Assembly (NCBI GenBank): GCA_004022145.1
Contig: RCNU01000015.1
Reading direction: 5' to 3' (one strand)
Length of the DNA stretch: 64,000 nt
From: Paecilomyces variotii
Taxonomy: Eukaryota
Shown here: positions 14,100 to 25,448 of the stretch, in pieces
Numbering within the stretch: the stretch's first letter is position 1
Layout of the letters: each line of letters begins with the position of its first letter
Position numbers and translations under genes: made by a program
The notes under the pieces: generated by a model
Database searches by the model: none
Told to the model about the DNA's origin: nothing
Seen by the model: the letters and a program-made list of their open reading frames with translations, nothing else

Positions 14100-15397
14100 A
14101 TGGTATACGGGAACGACTTCAGCGGCGGAGATGACTATGGTCGCTATGGCGGGGCAGGTTCCCAGATCCCCAAGACGGAGCTGGATCACATCGCCCAGCC
14201 GCCCGCCTACGCCAGCACGCCGGGAGCCGCGGGCCTAGAATCCCAGGGCGCGACGCCAAGGTCGAGATGGGACCCTCGTTCATGGGGTCTGAAGACCAAA
14301 CTTGCTGTGGCTGCTGCAGTGGTCGTTGCCATCATCGTGATTGTGGTAGGATCCGTGGAGGGTACAAAAGCGAATCGGTACCCGAATTATTCCAAGTTAA
14401 ATTATACCCTGAAAGAGACGTATTCGGGAACAAGTTTCTTTGATCAATTCAACTACTATTCGGGATATGACCCAGCGGCAGGTTTCGTCCAGTATGTCCT
14501 CTACAAAGTTCTTTTGGTTTGACCATGATCACTGACAATACATAGCTATGTGGACCAGGCCGGATCGGAGTATCTGAATCTGACTTATGCGTCGGAGGAC
14601 TCTGCTGTGATCAAAGTAGACACATCGAATGTCGATGCGTCTACCGGTCGAAGATCAGTCCGGATCACGTCGAAGAACACCTACAATAGCGGTCTGTTCA
14701 TCTTTGACATCCTGCACTCTCCCTACGGCTGTGGCACCTGGCCAGCGCTCTGGCTTTCCGATCCAGACAACTGGCCCACGAACGGGGAGATTGATGTCCT
14801 CGAAGCGAATAACGCTGCAACGACGGGGAACCAGATGACATTGCACACAACCAATGGTTGTAAGATGAATGTCAAGCGGAAGGAGACAGGAAAGGTGCTT
14901 GCCACGAACTGCTGGAACGAAACCAACAGCAACGAGGGTTGCGGCGTTCAGGGAAAGCCCGCTACCTATGGCGAAGCGCTGAACAACAACGGTGGAGGGG
15001 TAAAGATCTCCGACAGCTCGTCTGGATTCCGTCTTGCTAATCAATTCTACAGATCTACGCAACGGAGTTGAGAGATGCTGGTATCCGTGTCTGGTTCTTC
15101 CCGCGTTCTTCCATCCCTAACGATATCTCCGATGCGAATTCCACTCCGGACCCCTCTACGTGGGGAACTGCATTGGCTGACTTCCCCAGCACCGACTGCG
15201 ATATCAGTTCGCACTTCCGCAATCAGAGTATTATTGCTAATATAGATCTCTGCGGTCAACTGGCTGGCTTGGAGAAATTTTACACTGTGCAGTCTGGTTG
15301 CCCAGGAACCTGCACGGATTATGTGGCGAACAATCCAACAGCCTTTACAAACGCGTACTGGGAGTTCAAGAGCTTCAAGGTCTACCAGGCTTCCTAA
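14100..15397 (+). CDS. GH16 endo-1,3(4)-beta-glucanase, membrane-anchored (single N-terminal TM)
   Basis: GH16 catalytic motif GCGTWPALW...WPTNGEIDVLE; TM segment LAVAAAVVVAIIVIVVG; two introns at about 14493-14545 and 15000-15052. Confidence 0.92.
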
Positions 15398-15870: not shown

Positions 15871-16320
15871 TACAGTAACAACCTGGCTATAACGAACCCG
15901 CGTATAACGAATACCTCGACATAATGAATTTGACACCGTGTCAAAATCAAAATTCTATACAAAATTCGTTATCCCTCCTTACTACAAAAATCGTTCATTT
16001 CTTTTTCAGGCCTTGCTTATACAATTCATTATATGAAGGTACCCACAAATTTACCTTATTTATCAGTAATTACCTTATCAAAAATTCCCTAATTAGGGAA
16101 ATTTTATTCGAAAATTTCAATATTCATACCTATATACAACGAATGGGTTTGGTTTTTATGCCACTAGACCTCGATTTCTTCATCAAGTTTAAGATAATAG
16201 ACAGAGACCGCTGTAAGAAAGCAGCTAAGGAGTGGTTTCCTTTAAAGTAAATGGCCCCTATTTTTAAAGACTATAAGCAATATTAAGTTGAGCAGGGTAT
16301 TATCACCGCCGATGCTATTG
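15871..16320 (+). mobile_element. Truncated pogo/Tigger-like (Tc1-mariner superfamily) DNA transposon left end
   Basis: TA followed by CAGTAACAACCTGGCTATAACGAA, with subterminal repeats TATAACGAA (x2) and CATAATGAA, typical of pogo/Tigger TIRs. Downstream decayed frame DYKQY*VEQGIITAD resembles the segment preceding the first DDD aspartate of pogo transposases. No convincing right TIR. Confidence 0.6.
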
Positions 16321-17727
16321 GCGGGAAGTATCTACCTATATTCATTAAATCCTATCTGCATGTTGGTCGATTTGATTTCAATATAACCGAAGCATTTTCA
16401 AAACCCAGAGAGTGGCACGGCACCCCCATGGCTTCTATTCGCAGGTGTATCCACGCACTTACGGTAGTAGCCCCCGTCTTGGCATGAGGAACCCGGCAGC
16501 TTCAGCCTGTTCAGCCTTAGACCATATGTGTCGGTTCTTCTTCTTTATCTTCGCGAAATCGGCCCCGAGGGTGTCTTTGCCCATGCACTATAGGTGTATA
16601 AAGAAAGTATTCCTTATAAGGTTATAGTTTTCTACCGCACGATTTACTTCGCTAAGGGCTTTATAAAAATTTTATATATATATCTTTTTTAGGAGTTCTG
16701 CGGCCTAAATCTATAATTATATAAAAATCTCTTCCAGTAATAAAAAAAAAATATCCGGTAATAATAAATAGTTGTCCTATAGGATTGTCCGACAATATGG
16801 AGATAGCTAGGTTACTGTTATGAGTGTTTAAGTTAGCGTTGGTATTTGCTTTTAGGGCGCGTACTCTATATGCATGACCTGCAAGGCATGTCTGATTCCA
16901 CTATCACTAAAGCTAAATTCAATAATCTTATAATAGCCTATCCATAACCCTATTTGCCTTCTCTAGCATTTTTTGAAATTTAGTGTCTTAGAAAGCCATA
17001 GTCATAAAAAGTCATGTGTGCTGGGGAAGTCGTAAGATTAAGTCAGTATGAATGAATTCAGTAAGGATAAAATTATATTTATCCCTCAGGGCGCAGAACT
17101 CATTAAATCTCTACGGTCGACTGCTGAGTTGGCCTTCATCACCCCTCTGGAGCCCTTATCACCAGCACTCATACTAAAACATCATGCCGCCGCCTTAGAG
17201 GCAAAAAGGGCTTTCCGGCGATTGACCATGTTCTACAATGGGCTTAAGTACGGCTGAGCGGACGGGAAGCCCTGTTTTCCACACCCTATGGTCGTATGTG
17301 ATAGTTCTTTACTTCAAGGGAATCATATAGTGAGGGTAGGGATAGGGAATGTTGCATTAACGTAGAGTATACAGAATGTTTACCAGTACTGTGTTGTAAT
17401 ACTGCCATATATGAGCTTGGATGAACATGCAGGATGATTGATCAGACGGTATTTGAAGCTTATAGTTAGTCAACAGAAGGATCAAGCATCCGGGAGTTCC
17501 TCAGCAGCTCTGGACACGACGCCTCGTTCGAGGGCAACAATAGCACAGACACTTTCCGTGGGGATCCTTATCGATATAGGCTCTACGCCAGGGTTTATGT
17601 CGTATACAGAGACAGATATACGTTTTTCATCATACCAAAGATCAATACAACTTGCAAGTTCCAATCACCAATGAATGTTCTTCTATAGTCATGTTGTTTT
17701 TGGGAGATACATAAGACTTGTCAACCC

Positions 17728-19446
17728 TTACAGTCTTGCCTTTACATCCGCGTCTTCCAAAGACGATAGTCCAGTCCTATACTCCCGTAATCGATTCCGT
17801 AGTATCTTTCCCGTCGGGTTTCTAATGATGCGCGTAACTTCCCAGACACCACCTCGAAGCTTCTTGTAGCCACTAACTTGGTCATTGATATCTTTATGAA
17901 TTTGACGAAGTGCGCACACCTTCTCGGAGAGCGTTGTGAACAGCTTCTTCAGAACAACGTACGCGATAGGCAGCTCCGTAAGCTGATCTTCTTCCCATAC
18001 TGCTGCGACACCTGCTTCAGCGACATATGGGTGCGAGTTGAGATATGCTTCGAGTTCTGTCGGGCTAATTTGGAAATTCTTGTATTTTATCAGCTCCTTC
18101 GTACGTCCAACAATGGATATTAAGCCAGTTTCCGTAATAGTACAGATATCCCCCGTGTTGTACCATCCTGGAATCGGAAATGCTTTTCGGTTCGCCTCTT
18201 CATTAAATGCGTATCCTTGAAAGAGGTTGGGACCGCGGATCCAAAGCTCTCCCGGTCCACCTTTGTTTGCGTCATGAGTTGAGTTCTCTTGCTTCAATAC
18301 CGCTTCAATGTTGGGAAGTAGGTGCCCAACAACTCCATCTGGAAGATCTTCATCAAGCCTCTGGTATGCGATAAAAGGCGCTGCTTCTGTCATGCCATAG
18401 AGCTGAATTGGTTTCCAAGGTGCACGACTCAGAAGTCTGTCCATTAGATCTTGCTTGAACGGCGCACCACCACAGTTAATGATTTGCGCGCTCGAGAAGT
18501 CATATTTCTCGCATATGTCTGTATGAGCGAGAGCTAACACAATAGACGGCACACCTTGGAAACTCGTTGCGGAGTTCGACTGTACAAGTTGTCCGAAAGT
18601 CTCTAGATCAAAACTTGGCATTGCATGGTGCATCATGCCCGTCCATGGCCCGAAGAAGAGCGGCATTGTGGTCATGCCTATGTGCACAAATGGTGTGAAG
18701 GCGACTGTTCTACTCGCCTTATGGAATTGTTTGGGATCGTGCGCGTATAATTGATGACAGTTGGCGACGAAGTTGTAGTGTGTCAGCTGTGCACCCTTAG
18801 GCAGACCGGTCGTTCCAGAAGACAAGTGTATGGATGCTAGACGTGTGGACGTATCCTCCCAATGCGGAATCGGTAGACTTGTTTCTGCCATCAAATCTTG
18901 TGGCAAGTGCTTGTATCCCTTGACTTTCTTGCCTGCGGTTATAACTTGCGGTCTTTTCCAGACAGTACCCTCTTTCTGTAATGCATTCCTTGCGATTTCG
19001 ATAGCTTGCTCAACTTTCGGCAATACTTCTCCATAGACGATAACAATGTGAGGTCGTGAGACACAGAGTCCATGAGCGATCTCAGCTGGCTTCAATGCGT
19101 GGTTGATCGGGCAGGCTACACCTCCAGTCCAGAGCACTGCATGGAAAGTCTCTATATAGTCTACTGAATTTGGAATAATAATAGCGTGTCGATGGCCGTC
19201 TTGCGCATCTAACACGCATCGCAGGCCTTTTGCTAGTCGCCCAGCCCGCGAGCGAAGTTCTCCAAGGGTCAAACTGCGATTTGTGAGGTTGTCCTTGGCG
19301 ATCAAATGTGATGGAGGCAGAGGAGGTGTGCATGCGCTTGTATGAAGCAACTCCGTGAGGTTGATGTTGCGAGGAATGGTAATTTTAACTGAGGAGCGAT
19401 ACACATGTTGAGGCTCCTTGGTGTACATGGCTTTATCGAGCAACAT
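17728..19446 (-). CDS. 4-coumarate:CoA-ligase-like acyl/aryl-CoA synthetase (ANL superfamily), intronless, PTS1 -ARL
   Basis: AMP-binding motifs LSSGTTGLPKG, YGMTE, YNTGD, GRTKELIK and PTGKILR; C-terminus VKARL. Start is ATG 19446 or 19428. Confidence 0.92.
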   Translation of the reverse strand: MLLDKAMYTKEPQHVYRSSVKITIPRNINLTELLHTSACTPPLPPSHLIAKDNLTNRSLTLGELRSRAGRLAKGLRCVLDAQDGHRHAIIIPNSVDYIETFHAVLWTGGVACPINHALKPAEIAHGLCVSRPHIVIVYGEVLPKVEQAIEIARNALQKEGTVWKRPQVITAGKKVKGYKHLPQDLMAETSLPIPHWEDTSTRLASIHLSSGTTGLPKGAQLTHYNFVANCHQLYAHDPKQFHKASRTVAFTPFVHIGMTTMPLFFGPWTGMMHHAMPSFDLETFGQLVQSNSATSFQGVPSIVLALAHTDICEKYDFSSAQIINCGGAPFKQDLMDRLLSRAPWKPIQLYGMTEAAPFIAYQRLDEDLPDGVVGHLLPNIEAVLKQENSTHDANKGGPGELWIRGPNLFQGYAFNEEANRKAFPIPGWYNTGDICTITETGLISIVGRTKELIKYKNFQISPTELEAYLNSHPYVAEAGVAAVWEEDQLTELPIAYVVLKKLFTTLSEKVCALRQIHKDINDQVSGYKKLRGGVWEVTRIIRNPTGKILRNRLREYRTGLSSLEDADVKARL

Positions 19447-20874
19447 GCAGATCAAGGTATAGGTAATGATGTAGGGATAGGGACAAATAGTCTGTAGATC
19501 TCAACACGAAGAAAAGCTCGAGTATCTTGTATGGCACTGCGAGGTAACTCTGCTTCTATTTTACCATAATGCTGAATAAAGAATGGCTTAAAGGTCGCTT
19601 TCAATCGACACTCGGTAAGAAAGGCATGTTGGCCCGTAAGCCAACTAGATCCACTTATGCACATCCAAATAGATTGATTTGTGAGAAGTCTTCATGGAGT
19701 GTTCTAGCACAGTAAAATAATGCATCGTCGTTGTAACCTAATGACTCGGTCTCGGTTGTACTCCCTACAGTGTGATAGTGATAACAACAGCGTTACCGAA
19801 GATGTATGTATCTAGACCACCTGGTCTAAAGGCAAGGGTCCCACGTTCTCCTCTAGATCTTGACAGGGATTGCCATGCAGGCTTATACAAAAGTACGATA
19901 TTATTGCGCCGTTGTTTAGACGCTCCCGGTTTCCGGGCCATCGTCGCTCACATCATTTCCCAAACGGCTACTTATCCTTTACGGCGGGTTGCAACTTCAG
20001 AGACCACGACCCACAAAGATGATGGGAGTCCACGGAATACGGAGTAGAAGGGGGTCAGAATTCATCCTGTTGAAGGTGATACTGAACTAACAATTCAATG
20101 TTTGTGACATCGCTCCTCTTAAGGTTTGGTGGATGTGCTGGGCACGAGCCGGTCGGTATCGATATGACCGATTCGTTGATATCCTAACAACATGCCTTCC
20201 AGCACATGGTGACAGGCATGGAACCAGATTATCCCTGTGAAATCTAGACAGGTCTAGGGTATAGGGCGGGGTCGTCTCCTGCTGGTCGTCAGATGGGCAT
20301 TGTCACAATCTATGGCTCGTTGCAGCGAAGAAGATGGAAATTATCTCCTTCTGAACCGCAGAAGTTGCACATAAGTAATTAGGTAATTAGTTCCGCAGAA
20401 TATGCTATCACTAGATAGAGTTCTTATTAGTACTGGAAGGCTGTATACGCAACGGCATAGCAACTAATAAGTCTGTTGTGCCTGTACTGAAGCCGTCCGA
20501 TGTATTGCGAAGACCGGGTCCTTCCATGAAGTTTAGAATCGAGCATATACACGCCACTATCGATTCCTGGCTGCGTTATCTTTGAAAGGAAGCCGGCAGT
20601 GCGACTTGAAAACCCCATGTGAAAGGATCGAAGGTTCGCTTCGGTGATATCAACCCCTGGATTAAAGCAGGGATTAATGCAACTAGCGATTCTGGAAACA
20701 GACCTTTCCTGTCCGATATTCGCAGAAGAATTCCCCGATAGAAACAGATACTATATTAGACCGCACAGTCGGTCCTTCACGCAGCACGCCTGATAAATCA
20801 TTATCCTATCAGCGGGGATATCTTCCGTGTCTGCTCGTTTATGGATGATAGCCGCATACTTCGCTGGTGTCACA

Positions 20875-21490
20875 TCCAGGAAAACCAAACTGGAGGATTC
20901 TGCTCTTTGGTCGAATAGCGCCGATAGCTGCTGCTGATGATGATCTATAGTACTACAGAACCTACTTCATTCCAACGCTGGCACCGGAAATTCAACATCA
21001 GCTGGCAGGGTATTGAACTAGATAAGCCGCTTGTGGTATCATTCAAATCTAGCCCACCCAGATGTTTTGACTTTCCAACAGTGCCACAAGCTGTGTGATG
21101 CGGCCCTGGTAGTCTCGCCAATAGAAGTTTGTGTCTTTTCCGTTATTAATATTGACGCATATTCTGTTAGATCTAGACAGACCAAACTGGAAGATTCTCC
21201 TTTTTGTTCGAATGGCCTAGAGCCAATACATTACTATATTCCTATCCCACGCCGATCCTAGGATGTTTGTTGCTAGGGTCAGATGCATATCCGTGGAGGT
21301 TCTCATTCTGTATTATTGCGGCGCGGTGCTGGCATCCGAACCGCAACTGTCACGCTACCAATGCACGAATATTGGCACGGACAGTAATTTCATTCATGGT
21401 TTCCCATTTAACGCAAGTAGATGATTTCAGACCCAGGCAGACCGAACTGGAGGACTTTCCTTTTTTGTCGAATGGCCTAGCGCTAATAGA
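20875..21490. repeat. Three dispersed imperfect ~50-60 bp direct repeats (spacing 297 and 260 bp)
   Basis: ACCAAACTGGAGGATTCTGCTCTTTGGTCGAATAGC at 20884, ACCAAACTGGAAGATTCTCCTTTTTGTTCGAATGGCCTAG at 21181 and ACCGAACTGGAGGACTTTCCTTTTTTGTCGAATGGCCTAG at 21441. Confidence 0.8.
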
Positions 21491-21634
21491 TGTGTCCCGC
21501 AACTGATCTGTGACATCTCGAGGGGGAAAAGGAGACTTGGCCTTCCATTCCCAGCTGCAATTTGGTATTATCGTGTCTTCTTAAATTGTCTGTATACCAA
21601 CAGAAGAAAACATACGTGGAGAGTCTAGAATGGT

Positions 21635-22486
21635 ATGAACGACTTATCAACCATGGCACCAACAGTGATCCCACCTCCACCAACCCCCAACTTTCTCCAG
21701 CTTTCTTATCCTGCCCCCCGCATCTTATTAGTGGTCATGGCGCGCGAAGAGAGCCTGAACTGCATGAACACAGCGGCCCAGTGGGAGATGGACGCTGTTT
21801 GGAAATGGCTTGATGACGAGCCTTCCCTATCGGTAGCCGTTATCACCGGGGCAGGCAAGAAAGCATTTTCAGCCGGGGCTGATCTCAAAGAATGGAACAA
21901 TTCCATGGGAGAAGATTCCGACGTCCGAAATCGCATTGGCAATGCACCGGCTTTCAAACCCCTCAGTCGACGACTAGGAAAGAAACCCATCATTGCGGCG
22001 GTAAACGGGCTCGCGCTGGGTGCAGGTGCGGAGTTTGTAGTTAACTGCGATCTTGTTGTTGCAGCTGATACAGCATACTTTGGCCTTCCTGAGGTCAAGA
22101 GAGGTGTGGCACCCATCGGGGGATGTCTTCCGCGACTTATACGGATCATTGGGCTCCAACGAGCATCTGAGTTCGCGTTAACTGGACGCAATGTGAGCGC
22201 ACAGGAGGCTTTGACATGGGGGCTTGTTAACAAAGTTGTCCCGCAGTCGGAGGTTGTCAATGAAGCGGTCAAATATGCAAGTATGATTGCTGAAAATAGC
22301 CCTGATGCTGTAATCTGCACCAGGGCTGGTCTCAGACAGGGATGGGAAACTGCAGCTGTGGAACGAGCTGTGGATATCACATTGGAAAGGGAATTTGCTG
22401 AACTACAGAAGGGTTCCAATATTCGAGAGGGGTTGAATGCATTTACCGGGAAGAGACCTCCTAGGTGGACAAGAAGTCGGCTGTGA
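21635..22486 (+). CDS. Enoyl-CoA hydratase/isomerase (crotonase; SidH/carnitinyl-CoA-dehydratase-like), intronless, PTS1 -SRL
   Basis: FSAGADLKEW, KPIIAAVNGLALGAGAE and FGLPEVKRG crotonase motifs; C-terminus TRSRL. Confidence 0.93.
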   Translation: MNDLSTMAPTVIPPPPTPNFLQLSYPAPRILLVVMAREESLNCMNTAAQWEMDAVWKWLDDEPSLSVAVITGAGKKAFSAGADLKEWNNSMGEDSDVRNRIGNAPAFKPLSRRLGKKPIIAAVNGLALGAGAEFVVNCDLVVAADTAYFGLPEVKRGVAPIGGCLPRLIRIIGLQRASEFALTGRNVSAQEALTWGLVNKVVPQSEVVNEAVKYASMIAENSPDAVICTRAGLRQGWETAAVERAVDITLEREFAELQKGSNIREGLNAFTGKRPPRWTRSRL

Positions 22487-22961: not shown

Positions 22962-25448
22962 TTACGAGGACTCCAGTTTGCCCAAGAGACTACCCTCAGC
23001 AAACTGACTTTGCGGGGTGAGGTCCAGTAGTGGCTTCGTAGCGTTGCGGTCGCCGGAGGCAACACCATGCCCAGTTCCTACGCCTCCCTGAGCAGTTGCA
23101 AGTTTGTCGGCACGGGCCAGAAGACTGTTCGGTGCAAACTGACTGTCAGGGGATGTTATACTGTAATCCACCAAGGTCGACGAAGCTCCGTTTGTCCCAT
23201 GCTCATGGCCGCTCCCATGCTTGCGGCTACGAGTAGTATTGGAGCGTTTGGGTATGCCAGCACCAGTATTAGACATGTCTGCGGGTTCATCAGGAAGCGC
23301 AGGAACGCCATGCTGGGCTGGCCGTCTCCAAGTTGTCGCGCTAGGAACTACGATGGCTCCCGGTGCTAGCTCAGGACCAGTTGCAGCATCGACAAGAGGA
23401 ACACCAGGAGCGACCGTTACTCCATGACCCTTGCGCGCATGTTGTGGCGGTTCCCGGTAAACTGGCGTGAGATCAACGAGAGGTTTTTGACGAGTCGAAG
23501 TAGACCGATTGAGATCAGAATTGCCAGTGTCCGGATCGTGGGTGGAGCGCATAGTATTTGTGCGGCTATTGACACGACTTGACGGATTGCTGAATGGATG
23601 GGAGCATGGTGGAGAAACAGTCGGACTGAGCGCATTGAGTAAACCATGAGGAGAGAACGGCCCCTCTTCGGCTTCCTTCCGCTCTCTTTCACGCTCTCTT
23701 TCACGCATTAATCGCTGCCGCTGGCTGTATGTCCTTCCGAGAAGTCCTGTTGGTGAAAAGGTCGCATCCTCAACATTCTGAGAAGAGTCTGATCTCGGCG
23801 GTACGTCCTTGAGGTGGCGCGAATCGAGGTGCTGAGTATCAAGACTGAGCTTCTTCGGAAAGGATGCAGGAGCATGTGACTGGTTGTTTTTCTGGTGCAT
23901 ATGCTGCTGATATCGTGTTGGGTGGGTAGTCTGAATAGGGCCTTGATCCTTCTGAGCCTGACCCAAAACGTTTACCAAATACCAGCTCCGCCATCCCTGG
24001 ACGGCTTTATGCCATTGAGTAGCGATGTCGCGGTGATTAGTGGAGAAGAAATGGACAAAGTTCTCGGTGCTCAAGAACATGCTCGACTTTTGCTGGCTCT
24101 TGACCGCGAAGCATATTTTCTTGGGGGCCTTTATCTTCTTCGCTAATTGACGTGGAGTTGGCGAGTAGATATCGAAATCTGACAGGTGACAAACATTCGT
24201 TTGTTCATGCCCCAGTTTCTTGGCCATTACGACTTGGCCATCTGCGCGAAGCGTCACATAGCGCTTATCCCATTTCCCTGGTCGTTGAGAATGGTATATA
24301 TGGAAGGTTTGTTCTTCGGGCTGTTGTTCCGGAACGGCCTTGACATCGAGTTCATCTATCGCGGACGAACTAGAAGCAGGTATAATAACCAGAGAATTTT
24401 GATTATCAGAATCCCAAGAGTTCAGTACATCGCGAATATGCTCATATCTCCGCAATGGTCGCTCAAGCCCAAGTTGATGGAATGATTCAAGCAGGATAGA
24501 TCTCTGGGGATCAATCGGTTCAGAAAGGACATTGCACGCGAAAGTAATGATATCCTGGGAACAAGTGGTAGGGGTCACTGGCACCACGATGCCAGACTCA
24601 TTGCATTTCACAGTGACCTTTCTCTCGCCAGCATTCACAGCGGAGACGGGAGCGTCGAAGCCTGGGACGATTCCTCCTCCACCAGGCTCGATATTCTTGC
24701 CTGAGGATCCGTCGTCTGTGGCGGTTTGTTTGGTTTCACTCGCTTCTCGCTGAGAACGTCCACGGCTCTTCGAACGCGTAATTCGGGCCTTCCATGACAT
24801 CCTTGGCGATACCGTGCTATCAGAAACATCACGCCTAGTGGCATGTTCCGTGATAAATCCTGGCTCCTTCATTTCTCTGTGTCTGTCGTGGTCCCTTCTT
24901 TCCCTATGTTCCCTTGTGGCCCTCACTTTCTCTGGTGTCATTTGTCGTTCTTCAGAGGTCAACCTTTCCATAGCTTCCCTTCTATTCCGCTCTCGTATAG
25001 CATCATCTTCCTCATCGTCCTCGCTCTCGCTTTCCTGAGAACTATCAAGTTGTCCTCCGATACGAGTGTAAGAGTTAGAAACGTTCCGCGGAGTGCCAAT
25101 CTCGCATCGATCGGCTTTGCTTGCATCCACTCGCGACCGATCAACGAGCTGCGGCAATGGAGGCTGAGGCTCAGGAGGAGGCGGATGAGTAACTGCTGGC
25201 AACCTTGCTCGTCTGTATCGAGACATGCTCTGAGCAATGGTTTCATTGTGGGGCTTCTTCTGAGCTGACTCAGATCTCGGATCGTCTGTGATTGCGGTGG
25301 AGGTAAGATAACTTTGATTGACCTGCAATCCAAGTGTCTTACTAGCCTCTTGCTGCTTTTTCGCAGCAGCCTGTCTTACCGAGCGATACCGTGAGAACTT
25401 CAGGGGCCCTTGCCCTGGTGAGCCTATAACGCCTGGTTGAGGCTCCAT
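22962..25448 (-). CDS. Ras-association (RA)-like + PH domain protein
   Basis: 828-aa single ORF. Central LLESFHQLGLERPLRRYEHIRDVLNSW (RA-like) is followed by KWDKRYVTLRADG...FAVKSQQK...W (PH), with low-complexity flanks. Confidence 0.8.
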   Translation of the reverse strand: MEPQPGVIGSPGQGPLKFSRYRSVRQAAAKKQQEASKTLGLQVNQSYLTSTAITDDPRSESAQKKPHNETIAQSMSRYRRARLPAVTHPPPPEPQPPLPQLVDRSRVDASKADRCEIGTPRNVSNSYTRIGGQLDSSQESESEDDEEDDAIRERNRREAMERLTSEERQMTPEKVRATREHRERRDHDRHREMKEPGFITEHATRRDVSDSTVSPRMSWKARITRSKSRGRSQREASETKQTATDDGSSGKNIEPGGGGIVPGFDAPVSAVNAGERKVTVKCNESGIVVPVTPTTCSQDIITFACNVLSEPIDPQRSILLESFHQLGLERPLRRYEHIRDVLNSWDSDNQNSLVIIPASSSSAIDELDVKAVPEQQPEEQTFHIYHSQRPGKWDKRYVTLRADGQVVMAKKLGHEQTNVCHLSDFDIYSPTPRQLAKKIKAPKKICFAVKSQQKSSMFLSTENFVHFFSTNHRDIATQWHKAVQGWRSWYLVNVLGQAQKDQGPIQTTHPTRYQQHMHQKNNQSHAPASFPKKLSLDTQHLDSRHLKDVPPRSDSSQNVEDATFSPTGLLGRTYSQRQRLMRERERERERKEAEEGPFSPHGLLNALSPTVSPPCSHPFSNPSSRVNSRTNTMRSTHDPDTGNSDLNRSTSTRQKPLVDLTPVYREPPQHARKGHGVTVAPGVPLVDAATGPELAPGAIVVPSATTWRRPAQHGVPALPDEPADMSNTGAGIPKRSNTTRSRKHGSGHEHGTNGASSTLVDYSITSPDSQFAPNSLLARADKLATAQGGVGTGHGVASGDRNATKPLLDLTPQSQFAEGSLLGKLESS

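Follow-up and report, generated by a model that had tools for sequence, protein, structure and literature searches.

General features of the locus

The window analysed here is a 64,000-nt stretch of the genome of Paecilomyces variotii (contig RCNU01000015.1, assembly GCA_004022145.1). Its features of interest are listed below.

17728..19446, minus strand: predicted peroxisomal acyl-CoA ligase (ORF, Pfam, PDB match, transcript contig 17673-19532)
21635..22486, plus strand: crotonase of the SidH/CaiD subfamily, here ECH-A (ORF, Pfam, PDB match, transcript contig from 21216)
19447..21634, no strand: divergent promoter region
20872..21491, plus strand: three copies of a ~45-63-nt repeat upstream of ECH-A (20872, 21169, 21429)
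15871..16135, no strand: dispersed ~265-bp repeat in the flank, outside the pair
17241..17300, minus strand: 5' half of a 5S rRNA gene, 60 bp, in the flank
22962..25448, minus strand: RA/PH-domain gene, 828 aa, expressed, convergent with ECH-A

The ligase and ECH-A ORFs lie head-to-head with 2188 bp between them and end in -KARL and -RSRL, in agreement with the initial annotation, which described two head-to-head genes about 2.2 kb apart with PTS1-type ends and no NRPS, SidF or transporter beside them. Both genes had also been called intronless, and spliced RNA contigs from run X1, in which both introns of the left neighbour are skipped, cover the ligase (17673-19532) and ECH-A (from 21216) without gaps or mismatches. 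The ligase and ECH-A are real, transcribed genes. In run X19 the neighbours are spliced and the pair is uncovered, contig gaps alone carrying no proof, and all nine runs added by species label contain almost no sequence words of the pair. Run X2 resembles DNA. The GC3 values of the pair (0.475 and 0.486) agree with the 0.48 of the adjoining PH gene.

The spacer contains no relics of lost cluster genes detectable by tblastx, HMM or Pfam read-through searches. Neither CCTCGG nor ATCWGATAA, which we take to be the FarA-type and SreA-type consensus sites, occurs in 19447..21634. The core of the ~45-63-nt repeat is missing from the other loci fetched. The motif GAATyATTAG, picked post hoc, is present in 4 of 8 ECH-A promoters, a count that Markov shuffles reached in 17 of 100 trials; for 12-mers the count is 3 of 8, reached by shuffles in 5 of 100, so that a shared motif is borderline at best.

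Flanking DNA and inheritance

It had been proposed that the pair sits amid decayed sequence rather than core genes, which does not fit the flanks: the RA/PH-domain gene ends 476 bp to the right of ECH-A, and to the left about 2.3 kb of non-coding DNA is followed by an expressed, spliced gene. Decayed DNA is confined to the left side and consists of one small repeat and half a 5S gene. The ~265-bp repeat, with at least nine other near-full copies at 79-85%, has no Pfam match and begins TA-CAGT, presumably like a pogo/Tc1 end. About 30 matches to the 5S half-gene are listed from other parts of the genome; its 3' half is absent from the 64,000-nt window and Rfam gave no match. The half-gene suggested a 5S-targeting element (compare the available part of PMC11162782), which we rejected as an explanation for the pair: an insertion of this kind would have to sit to the left of 17241 and would not reach the two genes.

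All 17 P. variotii accession pairs listed are consecutive, with the two genes side by side, and the genes also adjoin each other in two sister species; this look-up shows gene carriers only, strains without both genes being invisible to it. Both gene trees place Paecilomyces with Rasamsonia. Within Paecilomyces/Rasamsonia the two genes belong to the core genome and have descended vertically, and the accessory, possibly mobile island of the initial annotation finds no support in this host. Pfam gave no match, to a captain recombinase or otherwise, in 12 read-through frames of flank and spacer; with no patchiness among the listed strains, we rejected Starship cargo for the pair. A bacterial donor was likewise rejected, the crotonase relatives at the 80 bacterial loci kept of 592 being at most 41% identical to ECH-A. 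AtuA or ABM genes accompany none of these 80, a MaoC gene one and a distant ligase 16. No relative was found on viral contigs.

The ligase

The ligase is 572 aa long (566 from the second Met), matches the Pfam AMP-binding family and terminates in the PTS1 -ARL. Its P-loop SSGTTG, YGMTE motif and terminal Lys K547 are intact. Its best PDB match is plant 4CL (E 4e-56), with 194 bits against 4CL and 128 against Fcs, and its structure model (TM 0.81 to 3a9v) indicates a known fold and nothing further; both back the earlier description of a 4CL/luciferase-like enzyme. In the top-120 homologue list, 96 sequences end in AKL, SKL, ARL or SRL.

At Pt4CL1 positions Y236, S240, K303, G329 and V338, which we take to be the hydroxycinnamate pocket residues, the alignment places G257, M261, N324, L349 and F358, and the homologues carry G/A, M, N, L/V and F/Y. 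Bulky residues therefore occupy the positions of G329 and V338, in a stretch of the model with pLDDT 50-67. Our literature search found no paper on the roles of these 4CL residues. Assignment as a plant-type 4CL was rejected, the ANL fold of the 4CL/luciferase branch being present and the hydroxycinnamate pocket residues absent. The enzyme is not SidI either, with a PTS1 in place of a PTS2 and 26% identity over 106 aa to the host SidI-like protein. Nor is it HcsA/FatB: its neighbour is a crotonase rather than the thiolase katA, the HcsA class being taken from the description in the available part of PMC8140964.

The crotonase ECH-A

ECH-A has 283 aa (277 from the second Met), matches ECH_1 and ends in the PTS1 -SRL; 116 of its top 120 homologues end in SRL or SKL. 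Its best PDB match is A. fumigatus SidH (7oeq, E 4.7e-77). The 262 bits against SidH compare with 93 against hydroxycinnamoyl-CoA hydratase/lyase, over residues 30-235 only, and membership of the HCHL subfamily was rejected on this score. Two glutamates of the catalytic type, E133 and E153, do not vary across the alignment (32 of 32 sequences). ECH-A has the two catalytic glutamates and the PTS1 expected of SidH. Orthologue-level SidH was nevertheless rejected: identity is ~48% (about 128/268, a hand count of the match line), and over SidH 74-270 hand counts give 50% for ECH-A versus 54% for the C45 paralogue, which is as close or closer; the tree contains no SidH. Siderophore genes and SreA boxes are absent at the ECH-A locus and promoter.

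A wider cluster in the Pezizomycotina

Ligase and ECH-A are linked in 16 of the 17 named fungi found in both top-120 homologue lists, linkage being scored from same-sized contigs or near-consecutive accessions in these lists rather than by a genome survey. They are adjacent in Paecilomyces, Xylona and Neocucurbitaria, 2 apart in Rasamsonia emersonii and Coniochaeta hoffmannii, and 4 apart in R. byssochlamydoides, Lophium, Mytilinidion, Thyridium and Dactylonectria. Gene order within the cluster also differs between fungi, and together with the varying spacing this indicates that clustering has been kept despite rearrangement. In Fusarium zealandicum the two genes lie on separate short contigs. 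The ligase of five Xylariaceae is on a contig that differs in size from the one carrying a second crotonase (ECH-B).

The one full locus read, metagenome locus L015, has the order MFS - MaoC - ECH-B - ligase - ECH-A. A TRI12-like MFS gene is present on 8 of 11 close fungal ECH-A loci, the remaining three being contigs of 1.2-2.1 kb. TRI12-family pumps can also export. By locus tag, ECH-B adjoins ECH-A in Colletotrichum fioriniae, Pestalotiopsis 9143b, Elasticomyces and Sporothrix; it adjoins the ligase in Exophiala, Lophium and Mytilinidion. The cluster MaoC has its closest relative (64%) in Verticillium longisporum, in a merged gene model that also includes a domain of the acyclic terpene utilisation protein AtuA; this is the one model that may link AtuA to the cluster. 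AtuA is absent from the fetched fungal loci and from all 80 bacterial loci, and the host AtuA gene lies on contig C5, unlinked to the pair. Two gene models join the ligase to an ABM-domain gene. For the ABM and AtuA pieces, the leads from the ESM Atlas were all below 0.9. L015 contains no dehydrogenase, thiolase or carboxylase; no geranyl-CoA carboxylase was found among the ORFs of L015 or locus L012, and neither these two loci nor the window has a PKS, an NRPS or a terpene synthase.

In P. variotii no ECH-B orthologue was found (best matches 44-45%), a search run without a positive control gave no ABM match, and the relatives of the cluster MFS and MaoC are unlinked to the pair. The pair is a reduced remnant of a 5-7-gene cluster, the fuller form of which adds ECH-B, a MaoC hydratase and a TRI12-like transporter, with ABM and AtuA genes as less well supported members. 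Of the compact two-gene module initially proposed, the linked unit with conserved PTS1 ends stands (16/17 fungi); its self-contained nature does not. The ligase is found mostly in Sordariomycetes, Dothideomycetes and Leotiomycetes, and most of the cluster hosts in the homologue lists are fungi of wood, litter or roots. We found no description of the cluster in the literature searched, which included few subscription papers.

Proposed function and alternatives

We consider it somewhat probable (roughly 55%) that the two genes form the core left over from a Pezizomycotina catabolic cluster in which activation of a branched acid feeds beta-oxidation. The cluster probably breaks down a plant-derived acid inside peroxisomes, and the imported acid is probably branched and of plant origin. 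The peroxisomal location, direction of flux, substrate class and hand-over to beta-oxidation that we infer would combine as follows. In the full cluster, the TRI12-like MFS would import a carboxylic acid, the PTS1-bearing ligase would form its CoA thioester in the peroxisome, and the two crotonases and the MaoC (MFE-2-type) hydratase would hydrate or dehydrate this at C2-C3. The two enzyme types, crotonase and MaoC hydratase, have opposite stereochemistry, so that jointly they could resolve acyl-CoAs that stall ordinary Fox2 beta-oxidation, such as cis-enoyl, wrong-handed 3-hydroxy or beta-methyl-branched species. The product would pass to housekeeping beta-oxidation; since L015 has no dehydrogenase, thiolase or carboxylase, these downstream steps are assumed. 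P. variotii, which retains the ligase and ECH-A only, would rely on unlinked genes for the remaining steps.

We lean towards a beta-methyl-branched, terpenoid-type substrate because of the AtuA-merged MaoC relative, the ligase pocket unlike that of plant 4CL and the chemistry of SidH, the closest solved relative of ECH-A, which acts on a beta-methyl-branched acyl-CoA (PMC3709128). A more specific version is doubtful: that, in filamentous ascomycetes, a partly horizontally spread peroxisomal cluster of CoA ligase, two SidH-like crotonases, MaoC, transporter, ABM and AtuA degrades beta-methyl-branched plant terpenoid acids without a biotin carboxylase. If this is true, eukaryotes would have a counterpart of the Atu pathway that uses a biotin carboxylase in bacteria, and the cluster would offer a handle on the role of AtuA.

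A fungal Fcs/Ech-like route, in which hydroxycinnamates or related aromatic side chains are activated, hydrated and cleaved by retro-aldol reaction, would suit the 4CL fold of the ligase, the wood, litter and root habitats of the hosts and the lack of a thiolase in L015; according to the available part of PMC8140964, fungi outside the Eurotiomycetes must use other genes. The route is unlikely, however, given the five altered 4CL pocket positions and the far higher score of ECH-A against SidH than against hydroxycinnamoyl-CoA hydratase/lyase. Equally unlikely is that ECH-A fills, solely or as a second job, the missing SidH step from mevalonyl-CoA to anhydromevalonyl-CoA. It could stand in because the host siderophore cluster lacks sidH: contig C10 encodes an ABC transporter, a SidF-like protein, a SidI-like protein with the PTS2 RLQQTLLHV (compared with Table 1 of PMC3709128) and a large NRPS, with no crotonase found within 105-165 kb, and locus L075 has seven ATCWGATAA sites. 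Only ECH-A and the C45 copy are SidH-like among the nine crotonase loci found in the genome, and ferrirubin has been associated with P. variotii in a review (PMC7763231, available part). The available part of PMC5932178 describes a Scedosporium 'sidH' (48% identity; at a guess, an ECH-A orthologue) that lies beside an MFS gene, off the siderophore cluster, and is up in iron starvation, but it also stays up in iron excess. Further against this role, ECH-A falls well short of the 80% over the C-terminus seen among true SidH orthologues (PMC3709128), its promoter lacks an SreA box, as does the vicinity of the C45 copy, and its conserved neighbours are not siderophore genes.

That the cluster is biosynthetic, making or tailoring a small acyl unit or metabolite exported by the TRI12-like MFS, is quite improbable. 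The TRI12 family is named after an efflux pump, ABM is merged with the ligase in two models and SidH-subfamily enzymes act in biosynthesis; against this, the loci read contain no PKS, NRPS or terpene synthase, and locus-tag spacing of 1-5 genes, with the intervening genes partly identified, leaves little room for one of these. Least probable is that the P. variotii genes are leftover neighbours that no longer cooperate, as the missing ECH-B and ABM and the unlinked MFS and MaoC relatives might suggest: both frames are intact and transcribed, and the genes have stayed side by side in three Paecilomyces species.

When a catabolic cluster persists through rearrangement in several fungal classes, it usually points to one particular compound of plants or litter, and the present cluster is carried by endophytes, by fungi of roots and wood and by Colletotrichum and Verticillium. 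Its crotonases are labelled 'sidH' or 'carnitinyl-CoA dehydratase' in databases, and awareness of the cluster averts sidH mis-assignment in iron studies. That the host has sidI and sidF without a clear sidH marks a gap in its siderophore biosynthesis. For the proposed catabolic cluster, the genes are a defined set for a substrate hunt, with the intronless two-gene P. variotii form as the simplest entry.

Comparison with known systems

The initial annotation drew parallels with SidI/SidH and Fcs/Ech; both are analogies only. Like A. fumigatus SidI/SidH(/SidF), which carries out peroxisomal anhydromevalonyl-CoA synthesis (PMC3709128; PDB 7oeq), the pair would use a CoA ligase and then a crotonase in peroxisomes, with ECH-A in the SidH subfamily and a PTS1 on the hydratase. 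Unlike SidI, which in Eurotiomycetes has the PTS2 RLQQTLxHx (PMC3709128) and whose host counterpart on C10 bears a PTS2, the window ligase is 4CL-like with a PTS1, and its locus is without siderophore genes or SreA boxes. The pair shares the two-gene layout of bacterial Fcs/Ech, but its scores against these enzymes (128 and 93 bits) are below those against 4CL and SidH (194 and 262). As described in the available part of PMC8140964, A. niger HcsA-KatA/FoxA, a beta-oxidation route for hydroxycinnamates, combines clustered entry genes with peroxisomal CoA activation of a non-fatty acid that then enters beta-oxidation, as we propose for the present cluster; HcsA, however, is a FatB/very-long-chain-type synthetase beside a thiolase, in Eurotiomycetes only, whereas the window ligase is of the 4CL/luciferase type and sits with hydratases. 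With Pseudomonas Atu/Liu (PMC4097962, available part) the cluster would share a CoA ligase, a crotonase, possibly an AtuA-family gene and branched acids, and it differs in that no biotin carboxylase or acyl-CoA dehydrogenase is seen in L015.

Structure and expression of the divergent pair

As initially annotated, the window holds two divergent ORFs, encoding a CoA ligase (572 aa, C-terminus -ARL) and the crotonase ECH-A (283 aa, -SRL), with 2188 bp between them.

Features of the window around the pair
14100-15397 (+): expressed gene, spliced, encoding an EIDVLE motif
15871-16135: dispersed repeat of about 265 bp starting TA-CAGT, with at least 9 other near-full copies (79-85%)
17241-17300 (-): 5S rRNA gene truncated at about 60 bases
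17728-19446 (-): ligase
20872-21491: three direct repeats of about 45-63 nt in the crotonase promoter, at spacings of 297 and 260 bp
21635-22486 (+): ECH-A

Pfam identifies AMP-binding in the ligase and ECH_1 in the crotonase. The 4CL/luciferase-like and SidH-like assignments held: the nearest solved structures of the ligase are plant 4CL and luciferases, and that of ECH-A is Aspergillus fumigatus SidH (262 bits vs 141 for the next match). Spliced RNA contigs from run X1, with zero differences from the window, span both genes without introns, confirming them as intronless; run X3 covers each gene partially. The X1 contig of the crotonase extends into its convergent neighbour, which makes ranking of genes by depth impossible; it begins at 21216, inside the second direct-repeat copy. 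A candidate shared element, GAATyATTAG, borderline against shuffles, occurs upstream of ECH-A in four loci (L010, L013, L014 and L015), and its window variant, CTAATGACTC, lies at 19738 near the ligase. The proposed peroxisomal targeting is echoed in homologues, with PTS1-type C-termini kept in 96 of 120 ligases and 116 of 120 crotonases.

Genomic setting and inheritance

The pair had been placed in an accessory island surrounded by decayed sequence. Decay was found on the left, as the dispersed repeat and the 5S half-gene, and not on the right, where the neighbouring gene ends 476 bp away. The best matches of both proteins (98-99%) are from P. variotii. Each of the 17 P. variotii ligase accessions in the list has a crotonase accession one number off, in a look-up that sees only strains carrying the genes and to which strains lacking both are invisible; P. 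lecythidis and strain No. 5 show the same adjacency. The window ligase falls in a starred set of seven rows, otherwise made up of Paecilomyces, Rasamsonia and a single environmental row, a placement shared by a second ligase tree; in a quick crotonase tree ECH-A shares its starred set with Paecilomyces, Rasamsonia and Elaphomyces. Given this adjacency, the gene trees, the close right neighbour and the confinement of decay to the left, the island was not borne out, and the pair is core and vertically inherited in P. variotii among the listed pair-bearing accessions.

Decayed transposase-like text, recognized by eye and with no Pfam match, trails the repeat to about 16400. The 5S half-gene, which may be a scar left by an element that targets 5S genes, has about 1.1 kb of unique DNA, AT-rich in part, to its left. 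The decayed flank (16354-16371) and the ligase start (19435-19452) share an 18-bp inverted match (94%), probably by chance. The gene at 14100-15397 we take to be GH16-like; two of its exons had no Pfam match.

Outside Paecilomyces, Neocucurbitaria clusters with Leotiomycetes in both gene trees, and Exophiala with Sordariomycetes in the ligase tree. AU tests on the ligase rejected a single Dothideomycete clade (p 0.002) and a single Eurotiomycete clade (p 0.03), using 17 rows, the simpler LG+G4 model and groups picked after the tree was seen. These choices leave the ligase history there as one of putative transfer or hidden paralogy, with transfer not proven. No close bacterial or viral relative was found in the bacterial loci and viral contigs searched.

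A wider cluster across fungi

The two genes are usually linked: among the 17 named organisms common to both top-120 homologue lists, environmental rows left out, ligase and ECH-A lie on one contig or have near-consecutive accessions in 16, the exception being Fusarium zealandicum. Close fungal ECH-A relatives occur at 11 of 15 metagenome loci, 8 of these 11 with a TRI12-like MFS. L015 holds MFS, a MaoC/MFE-2 hydratase, a second crotonase (ECH-B), ligase and ECH-A; in L015 and L016 ligase and ECH-A are divergent, as in the window. ECH-B forms a separate clade, about 40-44% identical to ECH-A, with both glutamates present and ends mostly -SHL/-SYL. In Lophium, Mytilinidion, Coniochaeta and Dactylonectria ECH-B is no more than five genes from the pair; in Exophiala, Colletotrichum fioriniae, Pestalotiopsis, Elasticomyces and Sporothrix it adjoins one pair member. 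By merged gene models, the ligase has an ABM neighbour (two models) and the closest MaoC relative has AtuA next to it (one). In five Xylariaceae ligase and ECH-B are on contigs of unequal size, indicating that the cluster also breaks up.

The peroxisomal cluster is real and conserved, apparently new to the literature, and the P. variotii pair is its reduced form. No ECH-B orthologue was found in P. variotii, and the ABM piece had no match in a search without a positive control. The MaoC and MFS relatives of P. variotii are unlinked to the pair, as is its distant AtuA; the AtuA-family gene (host contig C5:283000-293000, L081) adjoins an alpha/beta hydrolase, a xylose-isomerase-like TIM barrel and a methyltransferase. 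A second divergent pair, CoA ligase (-AKL) and crotonase (-TKL), sits amid housekeeping-looking genes on host contig C86 (1049337-1051997; L039, L040), with about 33% (ligase) and 37% (crotonase) identity to their window counterparts.

Predicted function

The ligase keeps its adenylation motifs. Five positions taken to line the substrate pocket differ from Populus 4CL; with a small residue at Y236 and bulky ones at G329 and V338, they suggest a short, closed, non-phenolic pocket. ECH-A retains both glutamates, which in crotonases mark hydration/dehydration beyond mere isomerisation, and should thus hydrate or dehydrate. Crotonases and MaoC hydratases differ in stereochemistry, and no dehydrogenase or thiolase was found in L015, the sole full locus read. 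This content would fit an entry module in which two crotonases and one MaoC hydratase correct stereochemistry or branching and pass the product to general beta-oxidation. We give a probability of roughly 0.55 to a catabolic cluster that activates an acid, (de)hydrates it and delivers it to beta-oxidation. Kinship with SidH, together with the AtuA hint, favours beta-methyl-branched acids as the putative substrate; the terpenoid form of this reading is given a low probability.

Alternatively, ECH-A could fill a missing SidH step in the host siderophore pathway. The siderophore cluster on host contig C10 (120800-148400; L074-L077) encodes an ABC transporter, a SidF-like protein, a SidI-like protein with PTS2 and a large NRPS, and L075 has 7 sites matching what we take to be the SreA-type consensus. 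No crotonase occurs in the 60 kb around it, and no clear SidH orthologue was seen in the host genome. The SidI-like gene excludes the window ligase from the SidI role and leaves the SidH step without a gene. Of at least nine host crotonase loci two are SidH-like, ECH-A and a copy adjoining a presumed mannitol-1-phosphate-dehydrogenase-like ORF, and neither has a SreA box or orthologue-level identity to SidH. We regard this role as quite improbable. The Scedosporium 'sidH' SAPIO_CDS2272 (48% identity), reported to adjoin an MFS and to respond oddly to iron (PMC5932178), may be orthologous to ECH-A and not a true SidH.

The cluster is a good lead toward a new catabolic route. Its CoA chemistry would resemble that of HcsA-type and SidI/SidH-type systems, but the pair is a member of neither.
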